Notes: a model not told the origin generated them from the sequence alone. Counted from the stretch's first letter, positions 12,018-45,857 are shown. The stretch is DNA of 64,000 nt from Kiritimatiellia bacterium (GCA_017509565.1 JAFWPM010000115.1:8401-72400); one strand, 5' to 3'. Translations and numbers: made by a program.

Positions 12018-12080
12018 GGGAACGATGATATCACTTGCCCATGCGTCCCGCTACACCGTTTTGCGCATCGTGGATTTATC
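12018..12080 (-). promoter_or_regulatory. conserved leader/promoter element upstream of the GH42 gene
   Basis: Minus-strand GGATAAATCC..TTTGCGCAAAACGGTGTAGCGGGACGCATGGG..AGTGATATCAT-7nt-ATG. The same pieces recur upstream of the hydrolase at 19551 and the regulator at 36057. Confidence 0.35.
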
Positions 12081-12216
12081 CATTCGAGCAACGAAGCGCG
12101 CCGCCGGACGGGAGGGACGCGCTTCCGCGCGACCACGGTGAGGACGGCGTCTTCCGTTCCCGGCCTTGTATTCGGCGGGTTCCTCGCAAGGGGCGCAAAG
12201 CGAGGCTTCGCTTCCG

Positions 12217-13284
12217 TCATGGAGTTGGCTGCGGAGCAGAGGTTACGAGGACGGCGGCGTTGACCGGATCCCCGGAATACCAGGCGACGAAATGGCGTCC
12301 GCCGGACGAGGTGGAGTTGGCGTTGCCAGAGTCGTGCGGACGCACCTTGCCGCCTTGCGCAAGGATTTCCGGCACTGGCCAGGCCATCGGGTTGGCGGCG
12401 ATGTCGGCGGCTTTCGCTACACGGCGCTTGAGCAGTCCGGGACCGCGCTCGTAGTAGTAGCAGGAGAGGAGTCCCGTCGCCGGATCGAAGACAAGGGAGG
12501 GCGTCGAGGCATTGACGTCCGTGATGTTGGTGCGATGCTTCGTCCAGCTCGCCCCTCCGTCGTTGGAGAGGAGTTGGAGTTGCCCCGCATGGCAAATTTC
12601 AGTGCGGGTGACGGCGAGGATGCGTCCGTCCGGGAGAACGACGGCCGAGGGTTCTGTCGGCCACTCGGACTTCGGCATGCCCAGTTCAACCGTGTGCTGT
12701 TCCCAAGTGGAGCCGTTGTCACGGCTCATGAGCGTTCCCCACGCATTGCGCGCGTCGTCGCAGTAGTTTCCCGCGAACCAAAGAGACATCAGGACTCCGC
12801 CCGGAAGACGGAGGACGTCGGTGATTTGTATGGGCTCGGGGTCGAGTGACGGCGAGGCGACCCTCTCCCAGACAAGGCCGGCGGAAGATCGGTAGAGGCC
12901 GTGGAAAGTGCCGGTGTCCCAGCCTCCGGCTCCCTGCCGGCGAACCCAGAGGAGCATTGCACCGGAAGCATCCAACCCCTTGCCGACGACGCACTCCCCC
13001 CATTCCGGGGAATCCGCCACGCAAACAGGTTCGCCCCACGACGCGCCACCGTCGTCGGAGACGCGGGCAAACGCCCCGCGGGATCCTTCGCCGGTTGAGT
13101 GCCCCTTGCCGCTGCTGTAGGCGCATACGACGCGCCCTCCGTCCAGAGCCTGGACCATGGGCCAGGAGTTGTAGCCGGGACGGTTCTCCACCATGCGGGT
13201 GGGGAACTCGGAGTTGGCGAAGAGGTCGGACGCCGCCAAAGATGCAACCAGGGACATGGAAAAACCGTTCAGGAGCGACGCTTT
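12217..13284 (-). CDS. BNR/Asp-box repeat glycosidase (sialidase-like, secreted)
   Basis: Signal peptide MKASLLNGFSMSLVASLAA. Three Asp-boxes: SDDGGASW, SRDNGSTW, SNDGGASW. No FRIP motif was seen, so sialidase specificity is tentative. Confidence 0.7.
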   Translation of the reverse strand, partial: KASLLNGFSMSLVASLAASDLFANSEFPTRMVENRPGYNSWPMVQALDGGRVVCAYSSGKGHSTGEGSRGAFARVSDDGGASWGEPVCVADSPEWGECVVGKGLDASGAMLLWVRRQGAGGWDTGTFHGLYRSSAGLVWERVASPSLDPEPIQITDVLRLPGGVLMSLWFAGNYCDDARNAWGTLMSRDNGSTWEQHTVELGMPKSEWPTEPSAVVLPDGRILAVTRTEICHAGQLQLLSNDGGASWTKHRTNITDVNASTPSLVFDPATGLLSCYYYERGPGLLKRRVAKAADIAANPMAWPVPEILAQGGKVRPHDSGNANSTSSGGRHFVAWYSGDPVNAAVLVTSAPQPTP

Positions 13285-13401
13285 CATGATTTCAACTCGT
13301 TGAGAACAATGCCTGAGACGCGGCGTACGCCGAAAAGAGGGTGATCCTTGAAAAGCTCTTGACTCGATACGCAAAAATACTAGCAAACCGCCTCGTAAAA
13401 C

Positions 13402-14694
13402 TCAAAATCCTGCAAGGCAGGTCTGTATGTCTGCGTGTTTACCACTAGGGATGCGGCCATTCGCGGAGAGAGCTGGCGGAGGCAATGCCCGCACCGACGC
13501 TTCCGCGCCGCGGATGAACAGGGTGGTTCCTGCCACCCACGGGGCGGCGCCGAGTGTGACGTTCGGGCGGAGATCCATTGTTTCGCGAAGGGCCGACGGG
13601 GCGGGGCCGGGTTCATGGCGCAAGGCGCAGCGCTCCAGCGCGACTCCGCGCACGTTGCCGCCCTCTCCCATGACAAGCCCGGGACTTTCGCAGACAAACG
13701 AGCAGTCGCGGAAGGTCACGCCGTCAATGGTCCCCGCCGCTCCGGCGCCGCTCACGACGAACGGTTCGCCGTTTCCCCACCAGTCGCCGGCGAAGATTCG
13801 CGTCTCGGCCCGCACCCGCTCGAACAGGATGTCCGAAATGGCACCACCGCTTTTTCGCGCGTAAACGCAGACGCCCCGGTTGGTGTCGGCAATCTCGATG
13901 TCCCGGAAAAGGACATGGCTTGCGTTATGGCCCACGCGGATCGCCGCCGAGCGCGAACGCATCCGGCACCGCTCGACGAGGATGTCGCGGCATTCGCCGT
14001 CGGGATGCGTGATGCACGTCGCCGCGAAACAGTCGTCACCGCACGAAAAGTCGCAGTCCCGGACGCGAATCCGGCGCGAGGCGGAGAAATGGACGCCGTC
14101 GCTGTTGGGAATGCGCAGGTTGTTGTCAATGGACACGCGCTCGACCTCAACGTCCTCGCAGTCCGAGAAGGTAAAGGTCCAGCACGGGGAATCGACCGCC
14201 TTGACGTCGTGGATTCGGACATGGCGGCATGAGTCGAAGAAGACGGGTTGCGACGGGCGTTTCCTCACGGGGCAAATCGTCTCGGCGACGAGTTCCGGCG
14301 ACGGATCGGCAAGGACCGCGCCGTTGCGGAAGCGCGGCGGCGCGTCCCAGTCCATGAAGGCCGAGCCGTTGAACCGGATCGTCCCGCCTCCACGGATTTC
14401 CACGTCCTCGGCGCCGAGGGCGAAAATGAGAGAAAGCGTCTCCCCCATCTCGCGGTGGTGAAAGCCGCAGTCGCGGTAGTCGGCGATGTCCGGCGACCCC
14501 TCCAGCACGGCGTCGGGCGCGATTTCGAGGATGGTGCCGGAATGCAGTTCGAGCGTCCCGGACCGGAACGTCCCGCCGCTTAGGCGCACCGCGACGCCGC
14601 GCGGGGCGGCGTCGATGGCGCGCTGAAGCGCCGCCGTGTCAAGCGTCGCCCCGTCGGCGAGCGCGCCGAACGCTCTGGAATCAATTGCGGTCAT
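13402..14694 (-). CDS. GH28-like right-handed beta-helix glycoside hydrolase (polygalacturonase-like)
   Basis: 430 aa with NSDGVHF ... RDCDFSCGDDC ... GHNASHVLFRDIEI, a GH28-type pattern. Confidence 0.65.
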   Translation of the reverse strand: MTAIDSRAFGALADGATLDTAALQRAIDAAPRGVAVRLSGGTFRSGTLELHSGTILEIAPDAVLEGSPDIADYRDCGFHHREMGETLSLIFALGAEDVEIRGGGTIRFNGSAFMDWDAPPRFRNGAVLADPSPELVAETICPVRKRPSQPVFFDSCRHVRIHDVKAVDSPCWTFTFSDCEDVEVERVSIDNNLRIPNSDGVHFSASRRIRVRDCDFSCGDDCFAATCITHPDGECRDILVERCRMRSRSAAIRVGHNASHVLFRDIEIADTNRGVCVYARKSGGAISDILFERVRAETRIFAGDWWGNGEPFVVSGAGAAGTIDGVTFRDCSFVCESPGLVMGEGGNVRGVALERCALRHEPGPAPSALRETMDLRPNVTLGAAPWVAGTTLFIRGAEASVRALPPPALSANGRIPSGKHADIQTCLAGF

Positions 14695-14731
14695 GACAAT
14701 CTCCCGGTCGGGGCTACTGCTTCCAATGCCC

Positions 14732-16264
14732 CTACCGCATCATGATGACAGTTGCGGTCTTGCCGATGCGGAGATTGCCGCCGGAGATTTTGGCGCCAAG
14801 GCTGTTGCCGCCTGCGCCGTTGACGCGCACGGTCCAGTTCTGGATGTTTTCGGGATTGGCGCAGTCGGCGAACGACACCGCGAGCGTGTCTTCGCCGAAT
14901 CCCTCCGCCGTCGGAGTCGCCGTGGAAAGGTCGATGACGCCCGAGGCGGCCAGCGTCGCGCCGCGGAAGGTGCCGCCGCCAGCGCCGTCCGTCACCGCGA
15001 TATGCGAAAGGACGTCGCTTCCGGCAGCCGCGCCGGAAAGGTCGAACGTCGCGCCGGACACGACGCCGACCGCGCCGCCGTCCTGCGTCAGGGAACCGCA
15101 GGAGAGGTTGCTGCCTGAGACCATGAACGAGCCGCCGGAGACGGTCACGGCGGGGAGGTTCGTCGCGACGACGGTCGCCGCACCTGCGCCCACCTTGCCA
15201 AACGACACGTCGCCGCCGACACGGCCGATCTTGAGGTCGCAGTCGCCGCCGTCCGCGCCGACGATGAGCGTCGCCGCCGTGACGGACGAATTTGTCACAG
15301 TTCCATTGAACCCGGGAGTAGCGTCGAACAGCCCATTCACGAGTTGTGTTGTCCCGCAAAGGTCGATGGTGGGGAGAGACCCCATTGATGTTCCTTTGAA
15401 CTCCATACGTCCGGTCTGGGATCCATTAGGAAGGGCGTAGTCCGCCGTCGTTTTGATCATGCAGGCGTTGGAAACGATGGTTTTTCCCGTGTGCGTCCAA
15501 AAAAACTGGTTCGTCGAAGCCGCCAGTTCAAATGCATATAATTTCCCGTTCTGGTGGTTGTAGAATACGACGTCGCAGCTGCCCTGCGTCTTGAATTTGT
15601 TGCTTCCGACAAGCAATTTCTTCGTTGTATTGTTGTTCATATACCATTGACCGACGCCGAAGTTGACCGATGCGCCGTTGATTCCCTCGAAGGCAAAGGT
15701 TGCATTTGCCATTGGATAGAACATCGAGGATGTCCCCGTCGCTACAATGGCGGCTTCCGAGCCGTCGAAAATGACGCGGGCTACGCCATTGGCATACGTT
15801 TGCCACTGATTCACCCATACACGTGAAAAGTCTCCATCGGTTCGCATTCTGCTTTGAATTCGCATGAAATCGTAATATCCAGAAGCATCCTTGACAGCGG
15901 ATCCCCCGATCACCAATTTGTTTGCGTTGAAGGCATCGTTTCCGGTGACAACGACATGTCCCTTGCCCTTGATTTCGCCAACATACAGCGTTGAACTGCT
16001 TCCAGACAAGACTATGTTTCCACCATTCGCTATGGTCAGCGTCGCTTCGGAGTCGGCCTCGCCCGGAAGATAAAGACCCTTGCCCGTTAGCGTGATCTTG
16101 CCGCCGGCCCCGATCGTGAGGTTCGCGTCATTCACGTGGACCTCGTCATACGAAACGTTCTCTGTCAGCGTCGTATCGGACGACACCGTCCAGTCGGCGG
16201 CCTTGGCCTGCCAGACGGACGAGACCGCGATGGCGGCAGCAATGGTTGCGATGCGAGGATTCAT
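14732..16264 (-). CDS. secreted PATR beta-helix protein with C-terminal ...KTATVIMMR tail
   Basis: Real start MNPRIATIAAAIAVSSVWQAKA (ATG 16262-16264, overlapping the upstream TGA). Gly/Thr/Ser/Asn-rich repeats (GGSFMVSGSN, TVSGGS). C-terminus GKTATVIMMR. Confidence 0.7.
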   Translation of the reverse strand: MNPRIATIAAAIAVSSVWQAKAADWTVSSDTTLTENVSYDEVHVNDANLTIGAGGKITLTGKGLYLPGEADSEATLTIANGGNIVLSGSSSTLYVGEIKGKGHVVVTGNDAFNANKLVIGGSAVKDASGYYDFMRIQSRMRTDGDFSRVWVNQWQTYANGVARVIFDGSEAAIVATGTSSMFYPMANATFAFEGINGASVNFGVGQWYMNNNTTKKLLVGSNKFKTQGSCDVVFYNHQNGKLYAFELAASTNQFFWTHTGKTIVSNACMIKTTADYALPNGSQTGRMEFKGTSMGSLPTIDLCGTTQLVNGLFDATPGFNGTVTNSSVTAATLIVGADGGDCDLKIGRVGGDVSFGKVGAGAATVVATNLPAVTVSGGSFMVSGSNLSCGSLTQDGGAVGVVSGATFDLSGAAAGSDVLSHIAVTDGAGGGTFRGATLAASGVIDLSTATPTAEGFGEDTLAVSFADCANPENIQNWTVRVNGAGGNSLGAKISGGNLRIGKTATVIMMR

Positions 16265-19200
16265 GGTGTTGCTCCTTGTGTTTGGATGGATTGCTGGTTT
16301 GGCGTTTGTCTCGCCGGTGTTTCTTCCCTGCCCAGATGGCCAAAGGGCGCGGCGGTCTTGGTGCCGCCGATGCCCTCCGTCCACTCCCGCCACTCGCGGG
16401 GGCCGCCATCCGAGTCGTTGACGAGGAAGTTGAAGCCGAAGGCGCGCGCGTCCGCCTTGAGCGGATAGAGCTCGCGAACCGGTATGGAAAGGTCGAAGGA
16501 GTAGCCAGACGGCGTGCGCCGGAACGCGATCTCCGCGTCCTGGACAACACCCCGGCGCGTGATGTCGTCGGGCAGTTCGGGGGTTGTGTAGTTGCGGTCC
16601 TTGTAGAGGATGTCGCGCCCGTCCGCCGTGCGCAGGAGGCGGAAGGAGGTGAAGTCCGCGCCGTCGTCGCGCGGGTCGATGGCGAACTGGATCGAATCGT
16701 TGAGCCAGCAGTTCTCCGGGCCATCTGGCGGGTCGAAGGCGTCGTCCTCGACCTCGAAGCGGAGGTGCAGGGAAGGCTGCGGACGCGCCGTGGGCGCGTC
16801 CCTACCACTTTGCGTGTGCTCTGGCAGGGACGTTTCCACGAAATGTCCGCCTAATGCCAATCTCGCCGTCGCGCCGGGAATGGCGATCGGCGGGCCGAAG
16901 GCGTCCGTTCCGAACGCGCCCCTGTGGAGCGCCTTGGATGCGGAATGGGTTTCCGAGATTTGCGCCACGGTGATGTCCCGGACTTCAATCGGCGCGCCGG
17001 CGGCCTGCTCCGAGAAGTCGGCGACGAGGACGAGGCGGAGCGTCGCGGCCTTTTCGTCCGCAATGGTGAAGGTGTCCGCGACGGTTTTCCACTCCGGCCC
17101 GGCGCGGCGGTCGCGGAGGCAGTTGAGTCCCTGCTTTCGCGGCCAGAGTTCTCCACCGTCTGCGTCATGGACGGTGACGATGCCGTCGAGGGTGCCGGCG
17201 CCTCGAATCGCGGCGGCGAAGAGATAGGTGTCGCCATAGCGGACGGGGACCGAATGGGCGACGGTCTCGAAGCGGCGTCCGCTCGCGGTGAAGGCGCGGC
17301 GTCCGGGCGGGACGAGGTTATCGCCGAGCGGATGCGTCGTGGCGGCCTCCGCCCGTGCGGCGGCGCTTTGCGCAAGGGCGGCGCGGATGGCGTCCCAGTC
17401 GCCGCCCTCGACATAGCGCGGGCGCGGCGTGGCGGGGAGGGCGAGAAGACCGTCCGCGCCGGGGGCGGCGGGCGACTCGTTGTCCATGAAGTCAACGGCC
17501 GTGAAGGACCCGCCGCCGAGCGTCGCGCGGAATGCGGCCGGGACGGAAAGCGCGTTCCAGAAGACCGTGACGGGCGTCCCGGCGCGGTCGAAGACGTATG
17601 CCTCGCATTCGCGGGTCGAGAGGTCGCCGACGTAGGCGGCGCCTTCGAGGCGGTGCGTCATGGCGCGGTAGGCGGCGAAGGCCGGGAGCGGCGCGCCGCG
17701 CACGTCGTGGAAGGAGTAGGGGCTGCCCTGGATGAAGGGCTGGAAGGCGAAGGTGCGGGAGACGCCGGCCGCCGCGTCGCGGACATGGAGCTTCACCATT
17801 GCGGAAGCGACGGCAAGCGGGCCGCTCCCGCGCTCCGAATGCCAGTCCATGTCCTCGGAATTCACGATGGCGAGGCCGGGGGCGATGGCGTCGCGCAGGG
17901 CGCGCCAGCCCGCCGCCTTGGAGGAGAAGCGCTTCGCGTTGCCGAGGTAGTGGACGCTCAGCGTGTCGAAGTCGGCGACGCCCCCGGCCGCCGCGACGGT
18001 TTCTTCTAGGAAATGCGCGTCAAGCGGGGCGCCGGGATAGACGCGGCACGCGGGGTCGGCGGCGTGGGCGGCGATGTAGGCGGTCTTGAGGTAGGCGGCG
18101 AAATCCTCCGGGCTTCCCGTGGTCCAGAATGCGCTTGTGTAGCCGGGTTCGTTTCCGATTTCCCAGTCGGAGACCCGCCCCCTGTAGCGGGAGACGAGGC
18201 GGCTCACGAAGTTCGACCAGGCGGCGAGGTCCGACGGGGCGGCCATTTTCCAGCGCGGCTCCCCGGTGACGGTGAGTTTTCCGTCCGCCGAAGGCGAGGT
18301 CCAGCGCGGGACGCCGACGACGTTCACGAGGACGCGGAGGCCGTTTTGGGCGGCCAGGTCGAGCCGTTCGTCGAGTCCGTCCCAGACGTCTCGGCCGCGC
18401 TCCGGTTCGCGGAGCGCCCAGCTCAGGTAGTGCAGGCGCGCCCATTTCGCGCCGGCGAGGCGGGCGCGGCGCAGGGCGCGCTCCGTCCTTTCGCGGCGGA
18501 GCGCGGTGTCGCGCAGGAAATAGCCGTCGCCGCCCACGGCGTGGCAGCCGAAGCGCGACGAGTCGATGAAGCCCTCCTCCGGCGGCTCCAGAACGCAGTA
18601 GGAGGTTGCGGCGGCGGCGCACTGGCGTGGCGACGACGCCTCGTCGTCGCGAAAGGCGGCGGAGACGCCGAACCAGCCGAGACGATCCGCGGGGAGCGCG
18701 GCTTCGCCATGCCCGCCCGCGATTTCCGCCTCGCCCCGGAAGACGACATTCGACGCGATGTCGCGCACCTCGTAGCGGACGAACCCCGCATCTGCGTTGG
18801 AGAGGTGCAGCGCAAGGCGGGCGTCGCCGCCGGGACGGAAAACGCCGTCGGGATCGGAGGACGCGATTTCCAGAAGCGGCTGGAACTCCGGCACGACATC
18901 GGATTCGACAAGCGCGATCGAGTCAAAGGTCACGGACTCGTGCTTGCCCGGGGAGACGACGCGGATCGTCGCGGCGTTGCGTCCGGGGGCGACGGGCATC
19001 GCGAAGTCGTAGGAAAAGCGCGGCGGCGAGCCGTCCGCGCCACGCGCGGGGATGTCGTAGAGGCGGCGGCGGCCGTCGGGGAGGGAGATTTCGACCCCGC
19101 CGGGGCCGTTTTCCGGCATGTGGCCGGCGTTGCAGCATTCGACGCGGAGGATGCGGAAACCGGGCGCGGATTCGTCCCAGAAAAGTTCGAGACCCGTCAC

Positions 19201-19551
19201 GACCTCCTCGTCGCGCATGAAGACGCTCTCGAAGACGGAGCAAATCGAGGATGGGATTCGCGACGACGGGAGCGTCGTCGCCACGGAGGGGACGGCAAAG
19301 CGCCATGTATGGGACAGGGCGTCCATCTCGGGGCTGTTCGCGACATCCGGAGCGCTCCCGTATTCCCAGGCCCGGTAAGGGAGGAACCCGGACGGCGAGC
19401 CGTCGGCCTTCCCCAGCCGCCAGATTTCGCCGCCGCGCGCGGACGAGGCGGACAAGGCGAGGAAAAGCGCGAAAGCCGCCGCCGTGAAATCGGCGGCCAA
19501 TTCGCGCCCCAACCTGCGTCTGCGTTGTCCTAGAGGTCCATTCATGCACAC
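16261..19551 (-). CDS. secreted glycoside hydrolase, GH5-like TIM barrel with C-terminal CBM9-like sugar-binding domain
   Basis: Signal-like FTAAAFALFLALSASSA. SDWEIGNEPGY (catalytic NEP). C-terminal DSIQFAIDPRDDGADFTSF...FGFNFLVNDSDGG resembles CBM9. Confidence 0.7.
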   Translation of the reverse strand: MCMNGPLGQRRRRLGRELAADFTAAAFALFLALSASSARGGEIWRLGKADGSPSGFLPYRAWEYGSAPDVANSPEMDALSHTWRFAVPSVATTLPSSRIPSSICSVFESVFMRDEEVVTGLELFWDESAPGFRILRVECCNAGHMPENGPGGVEISLPDGRRRLYDIPARGADGSPPRFSYDFAMPVAPGRNAATIRVVSPGKHESVTFDSIALVESDVVPEFQPLLEIASSDPDGVFRPGGDARLALHLSNADAGFVRYEVRDIASNVVFRGEAEIAGGHGEAALPADRLGWFGVSAAFRDDEASSPRQCAAAATSYCVLEPPEEGFIDSSRFGCHAVGGDGYFLRDTALRRERTERALRRARLAGAKWARLHYLSWALREPERGRDVWDGLDERLDLAAQNGLRVLVNVVGVPRWTSPSADGKLTVTGEPRWKMAAPSDLAAWSNFVSRLVSRYRGRVSDWEIGNEPGYTSAFWTTGSPEDFAAYLKTAYIAAHAADPACRVYPGAPLDAHFLEETVAAAGGVADFDTLSVHYLGNAKRFSSKAAGWRALRDAIAPGLAIVNSEDMDWHSERGSGPLAVASAMVKLHVRDAAAGVSRTFAFQPFIQGSPYSFHDVRGAPLPAFAAYRAMTHRLEGAAYVGDLSTRECEAYVFDRAGTPVTVFWNALSVPAAFRATLGGGSFTAVDFMDNESPAAPGADGLLALPATPRPRYVEGGDWDAIRAALAQSAAARAEAATTHPLGDNLVPPGRRAFTASGRRFETVAHSVPVRYGDTYLFAAAIRGAGTLDGIVTVHDADGGELWPRKQGLNCLRDRRAGPEWKTVADTFTIADEKAATLRLVLVADFSEQAAGAPIEVRDITVAQISETHSASKALHRGAFGTDAFGPPIAIPGATARLALGGHFVETSLPEHTQSGRDAPTARPQPSLHLRFEVEDDAFDPPDGPENCWLNDSIQFAIDPRDDGADFTSFRLLRTADGRDILYKDRNYTTPELPDDITRRGVVQDAEIAFRRTPSGYSFDLSIPVRELYPLKADARAFGFNFLVNDSDGGPREWREWTEGIGGTKTAAPFGHLGREETPARQTPNQQSIQTQGATP

Positions 19552-19640
19552 AATTCTACCATGTCCCCCATGCCCGCGCTACACCACTTTGAGCAAACGG
19601 GATTTATCCGTTTGCGCAGGCGGGGGCGGCGGGCAAGGGC
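19552..19640 (-). promoter_or_regulatory. conserved leader/promoter element (second copy) upstream of the GH5-like gene
   Basis: Minus-strand GGATAAATCCCGTTTGCTCAAAGTGGTGTAGCGCGGGCATGGGGGACATGGTAGAAT-7nt-ATG. The TGnTAGAAT box ends 7 nt before the start codon. Confidence 0.35.
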
Positions 19641-19807
19641 GTGGGGCGGGCTAGTGCCTCGTCCGAAAAATGCGTGGCAATATCCGCCGGACAGGTTTCG
19701 CCAAACGAGGCGTTGCCAAAAGGCGTAGTGTCCCTACGGCGATTGGCAACAATGAAGCATGGCGGAAGTTGGGCAAGGATTGTGTCATGGAGTTTGAGGA
19801 CAAGACA

Positions 19808-21016
19808 CTAGAGCGTGTCGCGGTTTTCGCGGCGCCATTCGGTCATGGTGACGCCCGTCACCTGCTTGAAGAGCTTGGCCAGATGGCTTTCGCGCACGAA
19901 GTTCGTCCGCTCCGTGATTTCGCCGATCGAGAGGCTGCCCGCCGCAAGCAGCGCCTTGACGCGCTCGATGCGTTCGCGGACGATCGCGTCTCGGACCGAA
20001 AAGCCCAGCTTGGCGCGGAACCGTCCTTCCAGCGTCCGCCGGGAACATCCGCTCGCGCGCACGACGGCGGCGACGTCGAGGTTCCCGTCCCCGGCGTTGC
20101 GCCGGACGAAGGCGACTGCCCGCGAAATGGCGGCATCGCTCGTGGCGGCGTAGCCTGTGCTGTCGCGCGTGACGATGCCGATGGGTGGCTGGGAAATGGC
20201 ACACTCGCGGGGCTGGCGACCGGACATGAGGTCGTCAAGCATCGCCGCAGCAATCTGGCCGCGGCGAAAGCCGCCGGTATGGATGCTTGAAAGGGACGGC
20301 ACGGTGGAGTCGCAAATCAGAGGGTCGTCGTCGACGCCCAGAACGGCGATTTCGTCCGGAACCCGAAGACCGGCGAAAAGACACGCCTCCAGCACGTTGC
20401 GGGCCCGATGGTCCGCCGGGGCGAAAACCGCCGTTTCCCGTGGAAGTTCCCTGAGGAAGCGGACCATGCGCTCCCGTTCCGTCGGCCAGTCTCGCTTTTC
20501 TCCGGCGGTGGAGGAATCGAACACCGCGAAGTCGAACCCCCGCTCCGCGAGCGCGTCGCCGAAACCGAGGCGCCGCTCGCGACTCCAGCATTCGACGCTG
20601 GGCAGATCGACGAACGCGAACGAACGGTATCCCCGCGAAACGAAATAGCGCGCCGCCATCGTGCCGATCGCGCGTCCGTCTCGCCGCACATAGGGAATGC
20701 CCCGGAGCGGATAGTCGGGATCCTCCAGTTCCGGCCCCGGTTCCACGAAAACCACCGGGACGCCCAGCGCCGCGATTTCGCGCGCGTCATCGAAGCCGGT
20801 CCTGGAGACGATGATGCCGTCGACCCCCGTTTTGGGAAAATCGGCCATCCTCTCGCCGCTCCAGCGCTCGTCAAAAAGGCAGAACCACTGACCGCTTTTC
20901 CCCACGTGGTCGAGAATGCCGAGAAACGTCGAGCGCTCCGCCTTCCTTTCCAGCGAAAACAGGATTGCGACCTTTTTCGTGCGGTTGTCTGCCATTGTCA
21001 TTGCCCTTTCAAGCAT
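19808..21016 (-). CDS. XylR-type transcriptional regulator (periplasmic-binding-protein-like sugar domain plus C-terminal AraC HTH)
   Basis: N-terminal KKVAILFS ... IIVSRTG ... AVLGVDDD (LacI/PBP-I-like). C-terminal RRTLEGRFRAKLGFSV...HLAKLFKQVTGVTMTEWRR (AraC HTH). The start is chosen at MLERAMTMADN. Confidence 0.75.
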   Translation of the reverse strand: MLERAMTMADNRTKKVAILFSLERKAERSTFLGILDHVGKSGQWFCLFDERWSGERMADFPKTGVDGIIVSRTGFDDAREIAALGVPVVFVEPGPELEDPDYPLRGIPYVRRDGRAIGTMAARYFVSRGYRSFAFVDLPSVECWSRERRLGFGDALAERGFDFAVFDSSTAGEKRDWPTERERMVRFLRELPRETAVFAPADHRARNVLEACLFAGLRVPDEIAVLGVDDDPLICDSTVPSLSSIHTGGFRRGQIAAAMLDDLMSGRQPRECAISQPPIGIVTRDSTGYAATSDAAISRAVAFVRRNAGDGNLDVAAVVRASGCSRRTLEGRFRAKLGFSVRDAIVRERIERVKALLAAGSLSIGEITERTNFVRESHLAKLFKQVTGVTMTEWRRENRDTL

Positions 21017-21047
21017 GGCTGGCCCTCCCTGGACCCGCGAACTGCAC

Positions 21048-22676: not shown

Positions 22677-22751
22677 ATTGCGCTCCTTGCCGTTTACGCC
22701 TTCAATTCTAGCAAAACGCGGGGCGAAATCCAAGTTGAAACTGTTGAAAAA

Positions 22752-22801
22752 TGTTGCCAATGTGAAAATGTTGCCAATTGCCAATGCCAGCTGCCAATTG
22801 C
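22752..22801. repeat. tandem TTGCCAAT-type repeats (about 5) in the upstream region of the ATPase gene
   Basis: ATGTTGCCAATGTGAAAATGTTGCCAATTGCCAATGCCAGCTGCCAATTGC. Confidence 0.4.
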
Positions 22802-22806
22802 TTTTA

Positions 22807-22859
22807 GCCACAAAGGACACAGAGTTCCCAAAGTCTGTGTGTTCCTTTGTGTTCTCTGG
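22807..22859. repeat. palindromic RPE-like element, intergenic copy E1
   Basis: GCCACAAAGGACACAGAGTTCCCAAAGTCTGTGTGTTCCTTTGTGTTCTCTGG. Its arms are imperfectly complementary (G:T wobble-compatible) and homologous to the in-ORF copies at 35246, 57470 and 59090. Confidence 0.6.
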
Positions 22860-22916
22860 GGCTGCAAAATGGATATTGGCAACATTCAGAAAGGTTGAAA
22901 GGTCAGAGACGGAAGG

Positions 22917-28226: not shown

Positions 28227-28293
28227 GGTTCGTTGGCTGGTTGGGCAGTTGGTTGGCTGACTAGTGGTTGGTCGTCATCCGCCCTACGTCACC

Positions 28294-29124: not shown

Positions 29125-29172
29125 GTCACGTTCTTGCTCGTTCTTGTTCGGCTCTTCCGGCGTTTGCACTCG

Positions 29173-31335
29173 CTAGTGCTTTTCAAGTTCATAAAACAGC
29201 GTCGCCGCATCCGGGTCGTAGTCCGTGCGGGCCGTGAAGACGAGCCGCCCGGTCGCAGGATCGCGTTCGACCGGAATTTCGCCAAGGCGGAGTCCGGCGG
29301 TGTTGAGGCGCCACGCCCTCCAGTCGCCGTCCGCAGTAGCAAGAGCGATTTCCGCCGCGCCGTTGCGTGCGAGGTGGGGAAGTCCGCCCCAGTCTTCGAG
29401 AATCGTCAGTTCCGGGTCGCGGTAGCGGACGCCGCTGTTCTGCACGTCGGTAAGGTGCGTGACAAGGATGCGCGAAGATTCGGGAAGGGGCTGGCCGTCG
29501 AGCGACGAGGCCCAGACCGTGGCGGGGGTGGCGGCGAGCGCGAACCGCAGCGCCCCGGCGTCATGCGCGCCGGATTCCGCAAAGCCGCCCGCCGTGCGGG
29601 GGGTGTCGATGAGGAAGGTGCCCGCGTTCTGGTCGATGCGGATCGCGCCGTGGGCTTTCTCCTTGGCGCCAAGCGCGGCCAGGTCGGCCCCGGCCTGCCT
29701 TGAAGTGGTGGAGAGCGTGGCGTGGGGAACACGGACGACGGGGGACGCCCACGAACCCCCGGCGGACACCACCGTCCCCACCTTCGCGTGCCAGCCCGTC
29801 CACAAGAGGGCGGGAAGTTCGCACTTGGGCGCGCCCGTGCGCGGGTCGCGCAGCGCAGACACGTCGAGGACAAGCGGATATTCGGCATCAAGCTCTGGAA
29901 GGTCGCGACGGAGGAAGAGGCAGAGGGCGGCGCGTTCGGAGGCGAGGCCGAGCGGGTCGGCGTTCAGGTTGAAGTAGTCCATCCGCCCGCCTGGCTCCTC
30001 CACGCCTTGGCGGTCGTGGCTCCATGCGAAGCGCCACATGCCGTCCCAGCCCTGAAGCGCGCCGAGCGCGCCCGTCACGATCCCCCCGCAGCCCCGGAAG
30101 CGACCGGGGCCGCTGAAGTTCCACTCCGTAAGGCAGAAGGGCTTGTCCATGAGCCGCCGCCACTCGACATCCCGGCCTCCGGCGCCATAGCCCGCGATCG
30201 GGTTCCTGTTCGGGCAGCTGCTCGGAAGCGACCACTGTTTTTCCAGAAACATAGGGTGATCGACGTAGAAATGGTCGTCCACGAAGTCGAAGTGCGTCCG
30301 CGACAGCTGATACTGCACCGGGTTGTACCACGACGAGAGGTTCGACACCGGGGCGCGGCAGCCGCACTTCTCGCGAACGAACGCCTTGAGGCGCTCGAAA
30401 AGCATCGTCTCGCGCTCGGCGAGGAACATCGCCACCGCACCCGCGCGCCGCCCCTCCGGTGTGTCTCCGGTCGCCTTGAGATCGTCGGGAATTTCGTGGG
30501 GGATTTCGGCGAAGGCGGCATTGCCCGCCTTCGCCGAAATCCACTCTTCCCACGCCTCCCGCACGCATGGGTGGGCGCGAAGCGCGGCGCCGCCCCAGTT
30601 GCCGAGGTTGCCCTCGTTGACGAACGAGAGCGTCGCGAGGGCCGGTTCCCCGGCGAGGCTGCGCCCCGTGCGCGGGTTCACGTGGCACAGGAAATTCTCC
30701 GTCCAGGCGCAGAGGTTCGAGAAGGCCGGTTCCCAGAACGCGCAGAGGATCTTGTAGGTGGCCGCGTTCCCGACGACGCCGTCGCGGTCGATGCCGATGG
30801 CGCGCCACGGCGTGGAATACGAGCGCGAGACGAAGAGATCGGTCGTGAGATAGACGCCCCGCTCGACGCACGCGGCGACGAGGTTGTCTAACTTCTCCCA
30901 CTGCTCCGGCGTCGGCGTGACGTCGTCCTGCCCCGGATAATGCCAGCCGTTGTCCACGATGAGGAAACGCTCGTGGTGGTGGATGCGGAGCGCGTTGTAG
31001 CCCATGCGGACGAGGTTGGCGACGAAGCGGTCAGCCGCCTCGCGCGACGAGGGGAGGTTCGCCTCGTTGCAGAGGTTGACGCCGTAGAAGCGTTGCGGGA
31101 CGCCCGGAATCCCCTCGAACTCAAAGTGGTCGCCGACGGCGATGACCCGTCCGAACTTGCCTGCCGGAGCATGGCGAGGCAGTGCCTCCGTGAAGTCAAG
31201 CGCCGAACCCGGCTCGATCCACGGGTCGAAACGGAGCGGAATCCAGTCCGCCCCGGCCTCGATGGTTATGGGTTCGGCAACGACATTGACGCAAAGGCCG
31301 CAGAGAACAGCGCAAAGGGATGCGGCAAGTTTCAT
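29173..31335 (-). CDS. secreted glycoside hydrolase, TIM-barrel (GH5/GH-A-like), family uncertain
   Basis: Signal peptide MKLAASLCAVLCGLCVNVVA. RFYGVNLCNEANLP and CLTEWNFSGP fit the GH-A-type NEx/TE pattern. Confidence 0.55.
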   Translation of the reverse strand: MKLAASLCAVLCGLCVNVVAEPITIEAGADWIPLRFDPWIEPGSALDFTEALPRHAPAGKFGRVIAVGDHFEFEGIPGVPQRFYGVNLCNEANLPSSREAADRFVANLVRMGYNALRIHHHERFLIVDNGWHYPGQDDVTPTPEQWEKLDNLVAACVERGVYLTTDLFVSRSYSTPWRAIGIDRDGVVGNAATYKILCAFWEPAFSNLCAWTENFLCHVNPRTGRSLAGEPALATLSFVNEGNLGNWGGAALRAHPCVREAWEEWISAKAGNAAFAEIPHEIPDDLKATGDTPEGRRAGAVAMFLAERETMLFERLKAFVREKCGCRAPVSNLSSWYNPVQYQLSRTHFDFVDDHFYVDHPMFLEKQWSLPSSCPNRNPIAGYGAGGRDVEWRRLMDKPFCLTEWNFSGPGRFRGCGGIVTGALGALQGWDGMWRFAWSHDRQGVEEPGGRMDYFNLNADPLGLASERAALCLFLRRDLPELDAEYPLVLDVSALRDPRTGAPKCELPALLWTGWHAKVGTVVSAGGSWASPVVRVPHATLSTTSRQAGADLAALGAKEKAHGAIRIDQNAGTFLIDTPRTAGGFAESGAHDAGALRFALAATPATVWASSLDGQPLPESSRILVTHLTDVQNSGVRYRDPELTILEDWGGLPHLARNGAAEIALATADGDWRAWRLNTAGLRLGEIPVERDPATGRLVFTARTDYDPDAATLFYELEKH

Positions 31336-32948
31336 CGCATGATGACGGTTGTCGCCTTGGGCTTCGTCAGCACTGTCGCGCCGGGTTGCTTCACGAGGCT
31401 GGCGCACGCGAACTCGACCGCGCTGGCGTCAAGCGTCGCGCCAGATGCCACCGTCACGATGCCGTAGGTCGCCGTGTCGCCGGCCAACGTGACCGTGCCC
31501 CCGGCGACCATGAGGTCGCAGGCGTTGGACAGCGCGGCCCCGGACACCGTAAGCGTGCCCGTTCCGGTCTTGACGATATTGACGTGCTCGCCGATCGCGA
31601 CGGTAAACGCAGCGTCGGCGTCGCCATAGCCGAGCGTCAGCGTCGAAACGGTGGCCGCGCTGTTCGAGACAATGCCTGCGCCGGTTGCGCCGGAGAACTC
31701 GGCATCGAATCCGTTCAGATCGAGAAAAGCCCCCTCCGCCACCGTCAGGAGTCCGCGTCCCGGCTTGAACTCGGAATCTGTCACGAGTACGTCTCCGCCG
31801 AGGATGGCGGTCGGCCCCGTGTAGTCGCAGGCGGAGTGTTGCGTAAGTCGATTGAAACGAAGGGTTCCGGCGCCACGCTTCGTAAAGCCGCCGTCGCCGG
31901 TGATGTTGATCTCGCGGTTGCCGGTGCTGCCGCCGCAGAGGGCGCGGTCGACGGCGTTCGACACGTCGATGGGATTTCCGTTGATTCCGACGACCGTCAT
32001 CTTCGGTTCAAAGATGGCGTTGCTCGTACGGCCTCGTCCGCGGACGTAGAAAAGCGGCAGCGACGCGGATTCGCCCGAAGTGTAGGGAACATACGAGCCG
32101 CCATCGAAGCAGATCCGGGAAGAGCCGGCTCCGAAATGCTGGATGCAGTTTGCGCGTAGCCATCCGTTCGACCCCAGGACAACTTCGGCAGTGTCGCTGG
32201 CATTCTCGGCTTGGAAAAGCATCGTGAACGCCCTGCCGTTGTCGAGGTTTGTCCCGCCCGCCGACACGGTGGCGTTCGTGACGCCCAGAAACATCGAAAG
32301 AGGAAAATCGAGCTGCTCGGACTGATAACCAAGGCGCAGCCCCTGAACGCCTGTCAACGAAGCTCTGTCGATCACGGAACCCGAAAACGGCGACACATTC
32401 GCGCCTAGGGCCATGTACACGCTGTCCTCCGTTGTCAACTGCCCGCCGTCATGGAGAGACAGCGTTTTGATTGCCGTGGCACCGTTGCCTACTCCCCAAC
32501 CGGCATTGTAGGCGATTCGGATTGCCGCGCCCCTGCCGATGTCCAAGCTGTCGCAGGAGATGGCTCCTCTGTTTGCGTACAGCCAGCTTGTCGCATTGAC
32601 GCCTTCGGCATTGAAGAACTTCAGCGGAACTCGCATGAAAGATGCCGGATTGGCATTGTTCTTGGCTTCAGACGGGAGATTGTTGATTGAGATGGAATAG
32701 CCGCGTCCAATCAGTTGGAATGGGTTGCTGACCGAAACGGAAGAATCGTATTTGAACATTCCCCCGAAGGTGATGCCGGCGCTGGAGGGGCCATACATCC
32801 TGTCGGCGTAGTAGCCATTCATGGACGTGAGGTCGATCGTGGTTGAATTGCCGACACTCGAGTTGAGTTCGTAGACGGACTGCGCCGATGCGGATATTGC
32901 CAGGGAGAGCGCCGCAAGCGGAGCGGCGACGAGTTTTATCGTCTTCAT
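31332..32948 (-). CDS. secreted PATR beta-helix protein with C-terminal ...KPKATTVIMR tail
   Basis: Signal peptide MKTIKLVAAPLAALSLAISASAQ. GTGTLTVSGAALSN...GGTVTLAG repeats. It ends KPKATTVIMR. Confidence 0.7.
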   Translation of the reverse strand: MKTIKLVAAPLAALSLAISASAQSVYELNSSVGNSTTIDLTSMNGYYADRMYGPSSAGITFGGMFKYDSSVSVSNPFQLIGRGYSISINNLPSEAKNNANPASFMRVPLKFFNAEGVNATSWLYANRGAISCDSLDIGRGAAIRIAYNAGWGVGNGATAIKTLSLHDGGQLTTEDSVYMALGANVSPFSGSVIDRASLTGVQGLRLGYQSEQLDFPLSMFLGVTNATVSAGGTNLDNGRAFTMLFQAENASDTAEVVLGSNGWLRANCIQHFGAGSSRICFDGGSYVPYTSGESASLPLFYVRGRGRTSNAIFEPKMTVVGINGNPIDVSNAVDRALCGGSTGNREINITGDGGFTKRGAGTLRFNRLTQHSACDYTGPTAILGGDVLVTDSEFKPGRGLLTVAEGAFLDLNGFDAEFSGATGAGIVSNSAATVSTLTLGYGDADAAFTVAIGEHVNIVKTGTGTLTVSGAALSNACDLMVAGGTVTLAGDTATYGIVTVASGATLDASAVEFACASLVKQPGATVLTKPKATTVIMR

Positions 32949-33134
32949 TGTTTTCCCTTCGGGATTGTGCTGTTTGCGTTGCGGCGGCCCGCGCGGGCCG
33001 TCCGGCGCCGGGAAGCGCTCCGGGCTATTTCAGGAGACTCCATACGGCACAACACAAGTATAGCACTCCCCCGATGGTTGATTTATACATTCCAATAATA
33101 TTTTTTTCACGGATGCCAGTTGAGTTTGCGCCAC

Positions 33135-34568
33135 TCACTCCCTGCCCAGCAGCTTCGCGGCGGGCAGGATAAAATCAAAATATCCGTCGGCCGGGACTGT
33201 CTTGGCAAGATGCCCGTCATAGACAAGTGCCGTCCGTATCGAGGTGTCGGTCATTCTGCGAAGCACCTTGACCTTTTCGGCGACCTCATCAACGATGCCG
33301 CCATCGATCACCCGCCGCCGCTTGATCTCCACGACCATCATCGAGCGCCTCGTCTGAATGAGCAAATCGATCTGGAGGCCCCGGACGGAGGAGCCGGCCT
33401 TTCGCGCGTATGGCGCGGCCGACAGGACTAGCGACGATTCAAGGCCAAGGTGCGGGAACAGGTCGGGGATATGGGACAGGATTAGGTTTTCAAACTGGAA
33501 ACCGAGCAGCGATTCCCATCCTGGCAGCTGCTCTAGTGACGAAAAGCGGAACAACCCCTCCTCTATGGCAGTCCTCCTCGGCTCGATGGCGTGAAGGTAG
33601 AACCTGGCGTAATTGTCGCTTATGCGGTAGCGTTCAAGCCGGAGCGGCTTGCCCGTCATCGGATTCAATCCGCTTTCCCTTGCGGCGAAGCCCGCCAGCC
33701 GGAGGTCTTTCAACGCCTGCGTGATTGCCCCGTTGGGGACTGTTTTCATGATGGCGGCCAGCTGGGAGGCGGATTTCGGGCCGTCGGCCAAAAGCCGCAA
33801 AACGCGGCCGCGGCTTTCCGTCCGGCGTCCAAGCACGGCGGAGAAAACGTCGTCGAACTCCCTGAAAAGAAGCGCACGGGGCAGGAAACACATTCGGCGT
33901 ATGTTCTCGTCGGCGGAAAGCTGCGGCTTGATTTCCTCGAGATACTTCGGGACGCCGCCGGTAACCGAAAACAAATCGAACAGCTCCCCGGATGACAGCC
34001 TTTCCGCATTCGGACCCAGCATCTTTACGGAATCGGCCAGTGACAGTTCCTTTATCGCCAGGTCAAGGGAATCGCGCCCGACGAACCCCGTATTGTCGAG
34101 TATGTTCTCCGCAATCCACGAGGAAACGCTGCCACACAGGACGAAAATCAGATTGGGGTGCTTCCTGAGACGCTTGTCCCACGCCTCCTTGAAATACCCG
34201 GGGAAATCGGGGCAGTGGCCGCCAAGCCAGGAAATCTCGTCAAGAAGCACAACCGTCCTTGCGTCATTGGGGATGATGCCGTCCAGCTGGGCGAAGGCCA
34301 ATGACCAATTCGAGGCCGACTGGCTATCTCTTTTCGCGTATTCGGCTATTCGTTCGCAGAAATGGCGCCGCTGGTCGGCGTCGGTCACCCCTTTTCTTGG
34401 GGGCAGGCCTTCGATGGCGATGAAAAACTCGGCCGTCCTTGCCGCGAACTCCTCGATCAGCGTGCTCTTGCCTATGCGTCGCCGTCCCCGGCATGTGACC
34501 AGGACGCCGGAATCGCGTCCCCACAAGGCTTCCAGCGCACTCAATTCATCGTCTCTTCCGACAAACAT
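33135..34568 (-). CDS. archaeal-type ATPase (Arch_ATPase/PF01637-like) with C-terminal DUF234 domain
   Basis: MFVGRDDELSALEALW...GRRRIGKSTLIEEF (Walker A) ... VLLDEISW (Walker B) ... C-terminal MMVVEIKRRR...DEV. Somewhat lower GC, and an AT-rich upstream region. Confidence 0.8.
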   Translation of the reverse strand: MFVGRDDELSALEALWGRDSGVLVTCRGRRRIGKSTLIEEFAARTAEFFIAIEGLPPRKGVTDADQRRHFCERIAEYAKRDSQSASNWSLAFAQLDGIIPNDARTVVLLDEISWLGGHCPDFPGYFKEAWDKRLRKHPNLIFVLCGSVSSWIAENILDNTGFVGRDSLDLAIKELSLADSVKMLGPNAERLSSGELFDLFSVTGGVPKYLEEIKPQLSADENIRRMCFLPRALLFREFDDVFSAVLGRRTESRGRVLRLLADGPKSASQLAAIMKTVPNGAITQALKDLRLAGFAARESGLNPMTGKPLRLERYRISDNYARFYLHAIEPRRTAIEEGLFRFSSLEQLPGWESLLGFQFENLILSHIPDLFPHLGLESSLVLSAAPYARKAGSSVRGLQIDLLIQTRRSMMVVEIKRRRVIDGGIVDEVAEKVKVLRRMTDTSIRTALVYDGHLAKTVPADGYFDFILPAAKLLGRE

Positions 34569-34637
34569 CCGTATCTCCTTATTCGCAAATAACGCCAGAG
34601 ATTATACCATGCGGGCGCATTTCTTGCAAATAAAATC

Positions 34638-34736
34638 ATATCTGCTAATTTCGATTTTTACAATTAGCAGATATGAAAAAGGCAAAATATACGCTGAAAT
34701 ATTTCTGCTAAAAAACTTTTTGCATTTAGCAGATAC
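34638..34736. promoter_or_regulatory. two palindromic operator-like sites with half-site TCTGCTAA, in the AT-rich region upstream of the DUF234 ATPase gene
   Basis: 34638-34674 is ATATCTGCTAATT-11nt-AATTAGCAGATAT (perfect 13-bp arms). 34701-34736 is ATTTCTGCTAAA-12nt-TTTAGCAGATAC. Confidence 0.4.
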
Positions 34737-34794
34737 TTTCATCGCTTGAAACCCGCAAAATGCCGCCCTGCTGTCGGCGCTTGGCCTGCCCAAT

Positions 34795-36057
34795 TCACGG
34801 ATGCCAGTTGCGCTTGCGCCACTCGCCCATGGACATCCCGGTGCGTTTTTTGAAGAGCCAGTGCAGCGCGATGTGGGAGCGGAACCCGCAGAAGTCGGCA
34901 ATGGCGCCAATGGGTGTGTCCGTGCGGGAGAGGAGCGTGAAGACCTTTTCGAGTCTGACGTGCAGGATCTCCTTCAGCGCCGAATGCCCCACGGCCTCGC
35001 GGAAGCGAAGGTCGAAGAGCGGACGCGAGCAGCGGAAGCGCTGCGCGAGTTTAGCGACCGTGAGTCCCTCGCAGGCCTCGCGTCGTATGGTCTCCATGGC
35101 TTCCAGGACGAACGGTTCACGCCGCCCGAAACCGCCTGTCGATTCCCGCCGCACGGCAAGCAAAGGCTTGACGAGAATTTCCGCGCCCCGAGTCTCGATG
35201 GAGGTTTTTTTGACAGGATTTAAAAGATTGACAGAATTTTTGTCAGCCACAGAGGACACAGAGTTCACATAGCCTTTGTGCTTCTTTGTGTTCTTTGTGG
35301 CTAAAACATCCCCAATGGCCTTTGCCGCCAGATACCCGGCCAGTTCGTGGTCGATCTGAATGCTGGAAAGCGTCGGGTGTGATGCCTCGCAGAGCACCGG
35401 GTTGCTGTCCACGCCGAGCAGCGTCAGGTCGCGCGGGATGGAGCGGTGGCAGCTCCTGGCCGCGGCGGCGGTTTCCACCGCTGCAAGATCCCCCACCGCA
35501 AAAATGGCGGTGTGGTGCGGAAGGGCGGCGAGCCACCGCGCAAGTCGCGCCTCGCGGAGCTCCTTCGCCTCGTTGCGCCATGGAAGGCGGGAAAACGGCT
35601 TGCCGGACGCGGCGGCAAGCGCGGCGAAGGCCCGCTCGCGCCGGAGCGACCAGCCCCTCCTTCCCGTCGGCCAGGCGAACGGCACTACCGCAAACGCCTC
35701 GGGCAAACCGGCGGAGAGCTCCCGGAAGGCCGCTTCGGCGATGGCCGCGTCGTCGTAGCCCACCCGTACGCCGCGCCCGCCGTAAAGGGTGGGTTCCGCA
35801 TGCATGTAGACAACCGGCACCTCGCCAAAGAGCCTCGGCGGAAGGTCGCGGCGGCCGCAGGAGCAGTCCACGACGCATCCGGCCACGGGCTTGTGCGCGG
35901 CCAGCAGATCGTGGATGGCGTCCGGACGCGACTTTTCTGGCGGCACGACAACAACGTTCCATCGCAGGCTGTCTGCGCATCGCCGCATTCCGGCAAGACT
36001 CGCCGCCTGCATGCGTCCACCCATGCTGGCATCAAGATAGAGTATTGTCGCGCTCAC
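34795..36057 (-). CDS. XylR-type regulator (PBP-I sugar-binding domain plus AraC HTH) carrying an in-frame RPE-like insertion
   Basis: PBP-like N-terminal (ILYLDASMGG...AIFAVGDLAAV...LLGVDSN). C-terminal AraC HTH (LAQRFRCSRPLFDLRFREAVGHSALK). A low-complexity insert ATKNTKKHKGYVNSVSSVADKNSVNLLNPVKKTSI is encoded by repeat E2. Probable GTG start at 36055-36057. Confidence 0.75.
   Translation of the reverse strand: MSATILYLDASMGGRMQAASLAGMRRCADSLRWNVVVVPPEKSRPDAIHDLLAAHKPVAGCVVDCSCGRRDLPPRLFGEVPVVYMHAEPTLYGGRGVRVGYDDAAIAEAAFRELSAGLPEAFAVVPFAWPTGRRGWSLRRERAFAALAAASGKPFSRLPWRNEAKELREARLARWLAALPHHTAIFAVGDLAAVETAAAARSCHRSIPRDLTLLGVDSNPVLCEASHPTLSSIQIDHELAGYLAAKAIGDVLATKNTKKHKGYVNSVSSVADKNSVNLLNPVKKTSIETRGAEILVKPLLAVRRESTGGFGRREPFVLEAMETIRREACEGLTVAKLAQRFRCSRPLFDLRFREAVGHSALKEILHVRLEKVFTLLSRTDTPIGAIADFCGFRSHIALHWLFKKRTGMSMGEWRKRNWHP
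35199..35303. repeat. palindromic RPE-like element, copy E2, in-frame inside the regulator gene (105 nt, 35 codons)
   Basis: Hairpin core GCCACAGAGGACACAGAG-TTCACATAGC-CTTTGTGCTTCTTTGTGTTCTTTGTGGC (35246-35301). It is preceded by TTTTTTTGACAGGATTTAAAAGATTGACAGAATTTTTGTCA, which shares motifs with the island-flank arrays. Confidence 0.7.
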
Positions 36058-36150
36058 TTCAAATCGGGTTCTAGTCCAAGTTGTGTGATTCCGTTTTCAT
36101 GGCGCGAAGGATAACTCGCCATGGTGATGGACAAATGCTACCATTGCGCA
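36058..36150 (-). promoter_or_regulatory. partial copy of the conserved leader/promoter element upstream of the regulator
   Basis: Minus-strand ...GCCATGCGCAATGGTAGCATTTGTCC... It shares the TTTGCGCA / GGTAGNAT / GCTAC pieces with the copies at 12018 and 19552. Confidence 0.3.
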
Positions 36151-36183
36151 TGGCAAAAGTCAAGCGATTCCCTTCAATGGCAG

Positions 36184-45848: not shown

Positions 45849-45857
45849 GACACTAGC

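Follow-up and report, generated by a model that had tools for sequence, protein, structure and literature searches.

The window analysed here, a 64,000-nucleotide stretch of DNA from a Kiritimatiellia bacterium (GCA_017509565.1 JAFWPM010000115.1:8401-72400), contains two sugar-degradation gene units which share a control region of about 75 bases at their heads. Along the minus strand the order is: XylR-family regulator, site B, a glycoside hydrolase (GH) of about 1094 amino acids (aa), a 553-aa unknown protein, a GH28 protein, a BNR/sialidase-like protein, site A, a GH42-like protein, and an HD-domain protein, with sites A and B denoting the two copies of the control region (Table 1). We consider it likely that this is a pectin/galactan-type glycan-degradation locus with two transcription units under sites A and B, and that the two sites are copies of one promoter-operator module by which the adjacent XylR-family protein (19808-21016) would switch on both units. 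The nearest DNA relatives of the window are metagenome-assembled genomes (MAGs) from cow and yak rumen which carry the labels Verrucomicrobia or Kiritimatiellae. The closest named homologue of the GH42-like protein is from Candidatus Colisoma equi (Kiritimatiellota); an exact-sequence look-up of the window protein itself returned no record.

Table 1. Elements of sites A and B and genes of the associated locus (positions in the window)
Feature	Position	Strand	Remarks
Site A, distal half-site TGCTCGAA-t-GGATAAATCC	12072..12090 (boxes 12090-12083, 12081-12072)	-	conserved in five related genomes/contigs
Site A, proximal half-site TGCGCAAA-ac-GGTGTAGCG	12049..12067 (boxes 12067-12060, 12057-12049)	-	occupies the would-be -35 position
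Site A, extended -10 box TGATATCAT	12025..12033	-	7 nt (12024-12018) before ATG 12017
Site B, distal half-site TGCGCAAA-c-GGATAAATCC	19600..19618 (boxes 19618-19611, 19609-19600)	-	sequence pattern
Site B, proximal half-site TGCTCAAA-gt-GGTGTAGCG	19577..19595 (boxes 19595-19588, 19585-19577)	-	sequence pattern
Site B, extended -10 box TGGTAGAAT	19553..19561	-	7 nt (19552-19546) before ATG 19545
XylR-family regulator gene, 402 aa from ATG 21016	19808..21016	-	GGGAGGG precedes the ATG; proposed binder of sites A and B
Large secreted glycoside hydrolase, ~1094 aa, clan GH-A TIM barrel	16261..19545	-	first gene of the site B unit; Pfam GH42/GH39 matches weak
553-aa unknown protein, GH28 and BNR/sialidase-like protein, between sites B and A	12217..16393	-	Pfam; same strand, short gaps
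GH42-like beta-galactosidase gene, 711 aa	9882..12017	-	site A at its head; Pfam PF02449, E=4e-36

The core of the two sites, 44 bp in length, has the consensus TGCKCRAA-n-GGATAAATCC-n4-TGCKCAAA-nn-GGTGTAGCG and is followed by 15 nt, the extended -10 box TGnTAnnAT, 7 nt, and the ATG. The first base of GGATAAATCC is exactly 64 nt before the ATG in A and B alike. When the two upstream regions are compared without gaps and in register with the ATG, 46 of 70 positions are identical, which is the top value among 64,343 pairwise comparisons of segments which precede an ATG in the window (mean 22.0, standard deviation 4.0, runner-up 41). Pattern searches and mismatch-tolerant searches revealed no further copies in the 64 kb.

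The first-pass annotation had placed such an element upstream of the GH42-like gene, of the large glycoside hydrolase gene (annotated there as GH5/CBM9), and, in part, of a second XylR-type gene at 36057. At the GH42-like gene all blocks and the 7-nt spacing are indeed present on the minus strand. The element also precedes the second gene, with a corrected start: position 19551 is an in-frame GTG two codons upstream, which lies inside the predicted promoter, and the true ATG is at 19545. With this correction, the extended -10 box ends 7 nt before the ATG at both sites, as had been claimed. The third occurrence did not hold up. Alignment and pattern search detected neither GGATAAATCC nor GGTGTAGCG nor the box pair upstream of 36057; this region has a canonical promoter, TTGACT-17-TGgTAGCAT, and ATGCGCAA occurs there only by chance. 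GCATGGG, which had been listed as a shared block, is out of register between sites A and B and missing from the orthologous B sites, and was rejected as a functional block for its lack of conservation.

Each half-site consists of an 8-bp TGCKCAAA box, a gap of 1-2 bp, and a GG-rich box (GGATAAATCC in the distal and GGTGTAGCG in the proximal half-site). The two boxes within one half-site are separated by about one helical turn, the distance to be expected if a single AraC-type DNA-binding domain contacts them with its two helix-turn-helix units. The half-sites are in direct orientation on the same strand, 23 bp apart from start to start, in every version of the element, and in all versions 18 bp separate the end of GGTGTAGCG from the -10 hexamer. 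The proximal half-site thus fills the -35 position of an extended -10 promoter. A consensus scan found no sigma-70 -35/-10 consensus pair at either site; the -35 is unusable and the -10 is extended. By sequence, the layout is that of a class II operator, with direct half-sites about two helical turns apart, the proximal one of which abuts a weak -35.

The constant 18-bp distance and the lack of a canonical -35 would also suit a promoter element which is read by RNA polymerase itself, such as the -35 of an alternative sigma factor or an UP-like element. We regard this as quite improbable, given that the promoters of purD, of a miaB-like gene, and of the regulator at 36057, all in the window, are devoid of GGTGTAGCG and of the boxes, that the conserved block extends to -73 and thus beyond any sigma contact, and that the element varies with the neighbouring regulator paralog (see below). 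A sigma-54 reading of GG...TTGC was rejected, as the GG...GC gap read from the sequence is 13 nt while 10 are needed.

The adjacent regulator is, as judged from its predicted domains, of the XylR type, that is, an AraC-family DNA-binding domain fused to a periplasmic binding protein (PBP) domain of the LacI/GalR type. The PBP-like sugar-binding domain is N-terminal and is followed by the AraC-family double helix-turn-helix (Pfam Peripla_BP_3, E=9e-31; HTH_18, 5e-16; HTH_AraC, 2e-9). The protein is colinear with Escherichia coli XylR (4FE7/4FE4) in a phmmer search against PDB (E=3e-42; residues 13-400 of the query, 25-409 of the chain).

Contigs encoding relatives of this regulator were fetched without use of the motif. 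In every fetched relative, at 57-96% identity, a version of the element is found in the intergenic region beside the regulator gene. It lies in tandem, downstream of the regulator gene, in the window and in contigs L012, L020, L021, and L027, and is divergent, upstream of the regulator gene, in L022, L028, and L030. The target genes vary: the GH/CBM9 gene is among them, as are a gene for an 871-aa unknown protein (L028) and others. The distal GG box drifts in orderly steps from GGATAAATCC to AGATAAAAGA, GGATAAAGCG, GTGTTAAAAA, and AGGAAAAAA, and the proximal one from GGTGTAGCG to GGTGTATTT. Three features are invariant: the period of 23 bp, the distance of 18 bp between the proximal GG box and the -10 hexamer, and the CGCAAA cores. 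The predicted recognition-helix residues shift in parallel with the operators, from CSRRT/RES to CSRRY/RDS and CSRRY/RPS. A 54%-identical regulator paralog, encoded on L031, has a cognate variant, GTCGCAAA-tc-GGAAAATTT...GCCGCAAT-tc-GGGGTCGTT-18-TACGAT, on the minus strand at 5258-5316, with a period of 22 bp and the same 18 bp to the -10 hexamer; L031 belongs to the MAG UBA6982, as do L015 and L019. The start codon annotated for the neighbouring 975-aa gene overlaps with this variant and has thus probably been placed too far upstream. In the divergent arrangement of L028 the distal half-site is located just upstream of the regulator's own -10 box, and the divergent arrangements in general suggest that the regulator may control its own gene.

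The first-pass annotation had proposed the conserved block as a candidate operator for the abundant XylR-type regulators. This fits the adjacent regulator at 19808-21016. It cannot be extended to XylR-type regulators in general, because the second XylR-type protein of the window (34795-36057) is only 30% identical to the first and has different recognition helices.

Drift of the GG box also bears on the possibility that the block is a transcribed, structured RNA leader (riboswitch or attenuator). Short palindromes, GGAT..ATCC and TTTGCGCAAA, are present in it. The changes from GGATAAATCC to AGATAAAAGA, GGATAAAGCG, and GTGTTAAAAA come without compensatory pairing, though, and the block is upstream of a conserved -10 box which is itself 6-7 nt from the site A start codon; we therefore give this explanation next to no credence. 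A search of 11800-20000 on both strands with the Rfam 15 covariance models gave no match at E<=1.

The distribution of the element was analysed in 185,579 species-representative genomes with the pattern GGATAAATCC-N14-GGTGTAGCG, in which the middle box was deliberately left free. There were 13 matches, seven of which are in four related rumen MAGs (Kiritimatiellia) and six in other phyla. Both TGCKCRAA boxes are present in 7/7 Kiritimatiellia matches but in 0/6 from the other phyla; by our own calculation about 4 chance matches are expected for this pattern in the collection, which is consistent with the six boxless ones. Three of the MAGs have one A-type and one B-type site each, and in the fourth (RGIG10146) this strict scan found the A-type site only. 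This distribution points to a local two-site regulon, and as far as can be judged from the genomes scanned the element is just that. The recurrence upstream of genes for carbohydrate-active enzymes (CAZymes) throughout the genome, which had been anticipated, was not seen: the strict matches are orthologues of A and B in the four MAGs plus the six boxless ones, the mismatch-tolerant searches of the window added no copies, and a genome-wide CAZyme motif was rejected.

At site A, five genomes/contigs retain the core, TGnTAnnnT, and the 7-nt spacing to ATGAATCT(A/T)CCATC, while the DNA further upstream is rearranged. The -10 boxes of these orthologues (TGCTATAGT, TGATATAGT, TGATATCGT) keep TGnTAnnnT and vary at the interspersed n positions. 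Site A is not universal, since contig L004, with an 86%-identical GH42 orthologue, has no intergenic region and no element. The core of site B matches that of L021 at 34/44 and that of L022 at 36/44 positions (regulator identity 72% and 68%, respectively), whereas identity over the preceding 60 nt is 8/60 and 20/60, which is chance level. Overall, the 44-bp core is 77-95% identical across contigs with regulators which are 68-96% identical, and the flanking intergenic DNA is at chance level.

This pattern is relevant to the question of whether the similarity of A and B might be the remnant of a recent duplication or gene conversion, with no shared regulatory function. Site B of the window shares GCATGGG and ATGAAT with site A, and the B orthologues have neither; moreover, in L018 an A-type module together with the first five codons precedes a different gene. 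The likeness of A and B is limited, however, to the blocks which are kept between orthologues, with regulators down to 57% identity, and the flanks are randomised. Blocks kept among randomised flanks are the pattern of purifying selection and not of recent copying, and we consider a mere remnant very improbable. As to the L018 arrangement itself (yak-rumen MAG RGIG10146, 6788-6875), the five codons encode MNLPS and the gene behind the module codes for a signal-peptide protein with homology to parts of proteins from L006 and L001 and none to GH42. This suggests promoter-cassette shuffling.

Several points weigh against a module of two half-sites operated by the adjacent regulator. We infer binding and the transcription starts at sites A and B from comparative sequence, as we do everything else here, and activation, as opposed to repression, from position alone. 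The distal and proximal GG boxes are only weakly alike and differ by 1 nt in their distance from the 8-bp box. TGCGCA is palindromic and several boxes read TTTGCKCAAA, which makes box orientation partly ambiguous; it rests on the flanking A-run and the GG boxes. The 23-bp period exceeds the 21 bp of AraC I1-I2. Beside regulators at 48% (L033) and 40% (L034) identity no convincing cognate site was found. Finally, 7.5 kb lie between site A and the regulator gene, and the site is assigned to this regulator only because the motif is shared.

The distance of site A, the partly palindromic TTTGCKCAAA boxes, which resemble the sites of some dimeric factors, and the many XylR-type paralogs with similar DNA-binding domains encoded in these genomes would be in line with an operator of a different factor, be it a global carbon regulator or another AraC/XylR-type paralog. 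Against such a factor, no neighbour other than the regulator gene recurs in all eight contexts, which comprise tandem and divergent arrangements and different targets, and the operator variants follow the changes in the recognition helices. A global factor is further at odds with the number of strict copies, namely two per genome in three related MAGs and a single one in the fourth. A different factor thus appears unlikely to us, although it is the alternative that we take most seriously.

Under the preferred assignment to the adjacent regulator, a sugar-bound regulator dimer would contact the 44-bp core with four helix-turn-helix units and, bound there, would recruit RNA polymerase (compare E. 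coli XylR at xylA/xylF and AraC at I1-I2). Judging from the geometry, transcription from sites A and B of the window would begin at the ATG or 1 nt before it and yield leaderless mRNAs.

AraC at araI1-I2 of pBAD and the class II activators RhaS and MelR bind tandem direct half-sites, each of which is read by a domain with two helix-turn-helix motifs. As with these AraC-type activators, the proximal half-site overlaps the -35 here, and as in araC-araBAD, the intergenic region in the divergent L022, L028, and L030 also holds the promoter of the regulator itself. In AraC, the ligand-binding domain is a cupin and the period is 21 bp, whereas here the domain is of the PBP type, the period is 23 bp, and no distant O2-like site is apparent.

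The sites of E. coli XylR, at xylAB and xylFGH, are about 37 bp long and consist of two direct repeats beside a weak -35 (PMC3561964). The two systems have in common the two-domain build of the regulator, which aligns over its full length to 4FE7, the operator of two direct repeats beside a weak -35 (IA and IF in E. coli; PMC3561964), and the control of two promoters at one locus by one regulator. They differ in that the E. coli consensus gaAa-a-a-AAT is unrelated to the core described here, which is also longer (about 44 bp, with a period of 23 bp), and in that the promoters found here are of the extended -10 type and, in the window, leaderless-type. Furthermore, the E. coli promoters are divergent and 360 bp apart while those of the window are in tandem and 7.5 kb apart, which makes DNA looping, as proposed for E. 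coli, unlikely here. An effector sugar other than xylose is probable for the 19808-21016 regulator; among the products of the locus are GH42-like, GH28, BNR, and GH/CBM9 proteins.

The element is thus a real and conserved, but familiar type of regulator-binding site and promoter, in other words an ordinary gene switch, and the understanding of how XylR-type regulators work is unchanged by these results. What they provide for a glycan-degradation locus of uncultured rumen Kiritimatiellota is a concrete and testable operator motif and the pairing of a regulator with probable targets; for this phylum a literature search found no transcription factor characterised by experiment. The fixed layout (two half-sites of box and GG box, 18 bp, -10 hexamer) could seed regulon reconstruction for the large family of XylR-type paralogs.

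At sites A and B the -10 box is 7 nt from the ATG and no Shine-Dalgarno (SD) motif lies between them; the predicted leaderless start of the GH42-like gene is ATG 12017. That this spacing predicts leaderless or nearly leaderless mRNAs had been noted before. The spacing is real in the window and recurs at unrelated genes, but it is not part of the element, as the B orthologues have longer leaders. Site A retains the 7-nt geometry in all five genomes/contigs. In the B orthologues, the stretch after the -10 box measures 26 nt in L012, L020, and L027, 12 or 24 nt in L021, and 6 or 24 nt in L022. It is longer still in the more distant relatives, at about 45 nt in L028, where it includes AAGGA, and about 30 nt in L030, where it includes GGAGG; both motifs are SD-like. 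In comparison to L012 and L020, the window lacks 19 nt at site B, and this window-specific deletion is the reason why the same ATG there follows the -10 box after only 7 nt. That B acquired its leaderless start by gene conversion from A was rejected, given that AGAATTG of the -10 region is that of the B lineage and a simple 19-nt deletion is seen.

For two further genes of the window, purD and a miaB/rimO-like gene, the start is fixed by the N-terminal Pfam alignment, and TGnTAnnnT precedes it by 6-9 nt. For purD (ATG 48451; window 48430-48453, plus strand) the extended -10 box is TGCTATACT, followed by 6 nt, and the Pfam alignment begins at residue 1; for the miaB/rimO-like gene (ATG 45848; window 45848-45875, minus strand) the box is TGGTATAAT, followed by 9 nt, and the alignment begins at residue 3. 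Such a distance from -10 box to ATG is also found for the regulator genes of L022, L028, and L030 and for several other genes in related contigs. In the window and related DNA, a TAnnnT hexamer is found 6-9 nt upstream of 14 of 275 ATGs near the start of an open reading frame (ORF) versus 8 of 1167 internal ATGs, counts which include some orthologous duplicates and are weakened by them. Since the same spacing is found at purD, the miaB-like gene, and the regulator genes, the leaderless-type spacing appears to characterise the lineage rather than the operator. For L018, the signal peptide of the downstream protein can start only at the ATG of the module (MNLPSSLLTATLLAAS...), which supports this ATG as a working start codon. 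Internal genes have SD motifs (e.g., GGGAGGG before ATG 21016), and some first genes, such as an argG-like gene, have a leader with an SD-like motif, as read from the sequence.

This situation resembles the GeneMarkS-2 "group C" (Actinobacteria, Deinococcus-Thermus), in which a Pribnow box is found 6-8 nt before the start codon of leaderless transcripts (PMC6028130). As in that group, the box precedes first genes of operons without SD motif, and internal genes have one. The difference is in the organism, which is a member of the Kiritimatiellota (PVC group); PVC phyla are not mentioned in the main text of the GeneMarkS-2 paper (PMC6028130). A literature search on Kiritimatiellota found no transcription-start study and no report of leaderless transcripts. 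In the one survey found in which Kiritimatiellae and leaderless mRNAs both occur, the anti-SD table gives 63 for this class, which we took as the percentage of genes using SD. We are close to evenly divided, leaning slightly towards doubt, on the wider proposal that leaderless initiation is a common, so far undescribed mode in rumen Kiritimatiellota (purD, miaB-like gene, XylR-type regulators, glycan units), and that operator, -10 box, and start codon may form a portable cassette, as exemplified by L018 and by the 19-nt deletion which made the leadered promoter of site B leaderless. The recurrent spacing of 6-9 nt between -10 box and ATG is in any case relevant to annotation. A public call for a 95%-identical GH42 orthologue (P0001; L001, 5722-5749) starts nine codons downstream of the conserved leaderless ATG, and this is likely a systematic start-site error for such genes.

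As to the genes of the locus, the N-terminus of the ~1094-aa glycoside hydrolase is signal-peptide-like, and CBM9 is present in its L021 and L022 orthologues. The genes for the 553-aa protein, the GH28 protein, and the BNR protein are, from their arrangement, probably co-transcribed from site B. No intrinsic terminator-like site was found in the stretch from the BNR gene to site A, and site A may thus act as an internal, co-regulated promoter. Between the stop codon of the regulator gene and site B there is an insertion of about 158 bp (19650-19807) with CTAG on both sides, which is missing from L012 and L020 and unique among all DNA compared. It carries hairpins and the only terminator-like site of the region (GGCGGATATTGCC plus a T-run).

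The promoter of the second XylR-type gene (TTGACT-17-TGgTAGCAT; window 36054-36140, minus strand) is followed by 12 nt and a 22-codon ORF, MASYPSRHENGITQLGLEPDLK. The TGA stop of this ORF overlaps the GTG start of the regulator gene within GTGA, which suggests translational coupling. This second regulator gene also contains one of three copies of a palindromic repeat of about 75 nt, AGCCACAAAGAACACAAAG...CTCTGTGTCCTCTGTGGCT (22796-22870, 35235-35309, 57464-57521), for which a hairpin of -26.7 kcal/mol is predicted, the z-score being no better than -2.1. This copy, at 35235-35309, represents an in-frame insertion of about 32 aa (LATKNTKKHKGYVNS...) which is missing in all other aligned XylR-type proteins. 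The copy at 57464-57521 is inside the ORF 55462-58080, with the same start of the encoded peptide (SLATKNTKRHK). These insertions resemble the in-frame palindromic elements of Rickettsia.

Finally, a 30-nt module, GCATAAAGGGACA[GC]ACAAT[TC]TATTGACA, with a perfect TTGACA at its end, is found in intergenic regions on the minus strand. Its five copies are at 9790-9828, 36173-36211, 36373-36411, and 55417-55487, two of them in tandem and overlapping. The module could be a promoter/operator of another regulon or a small repeat family.

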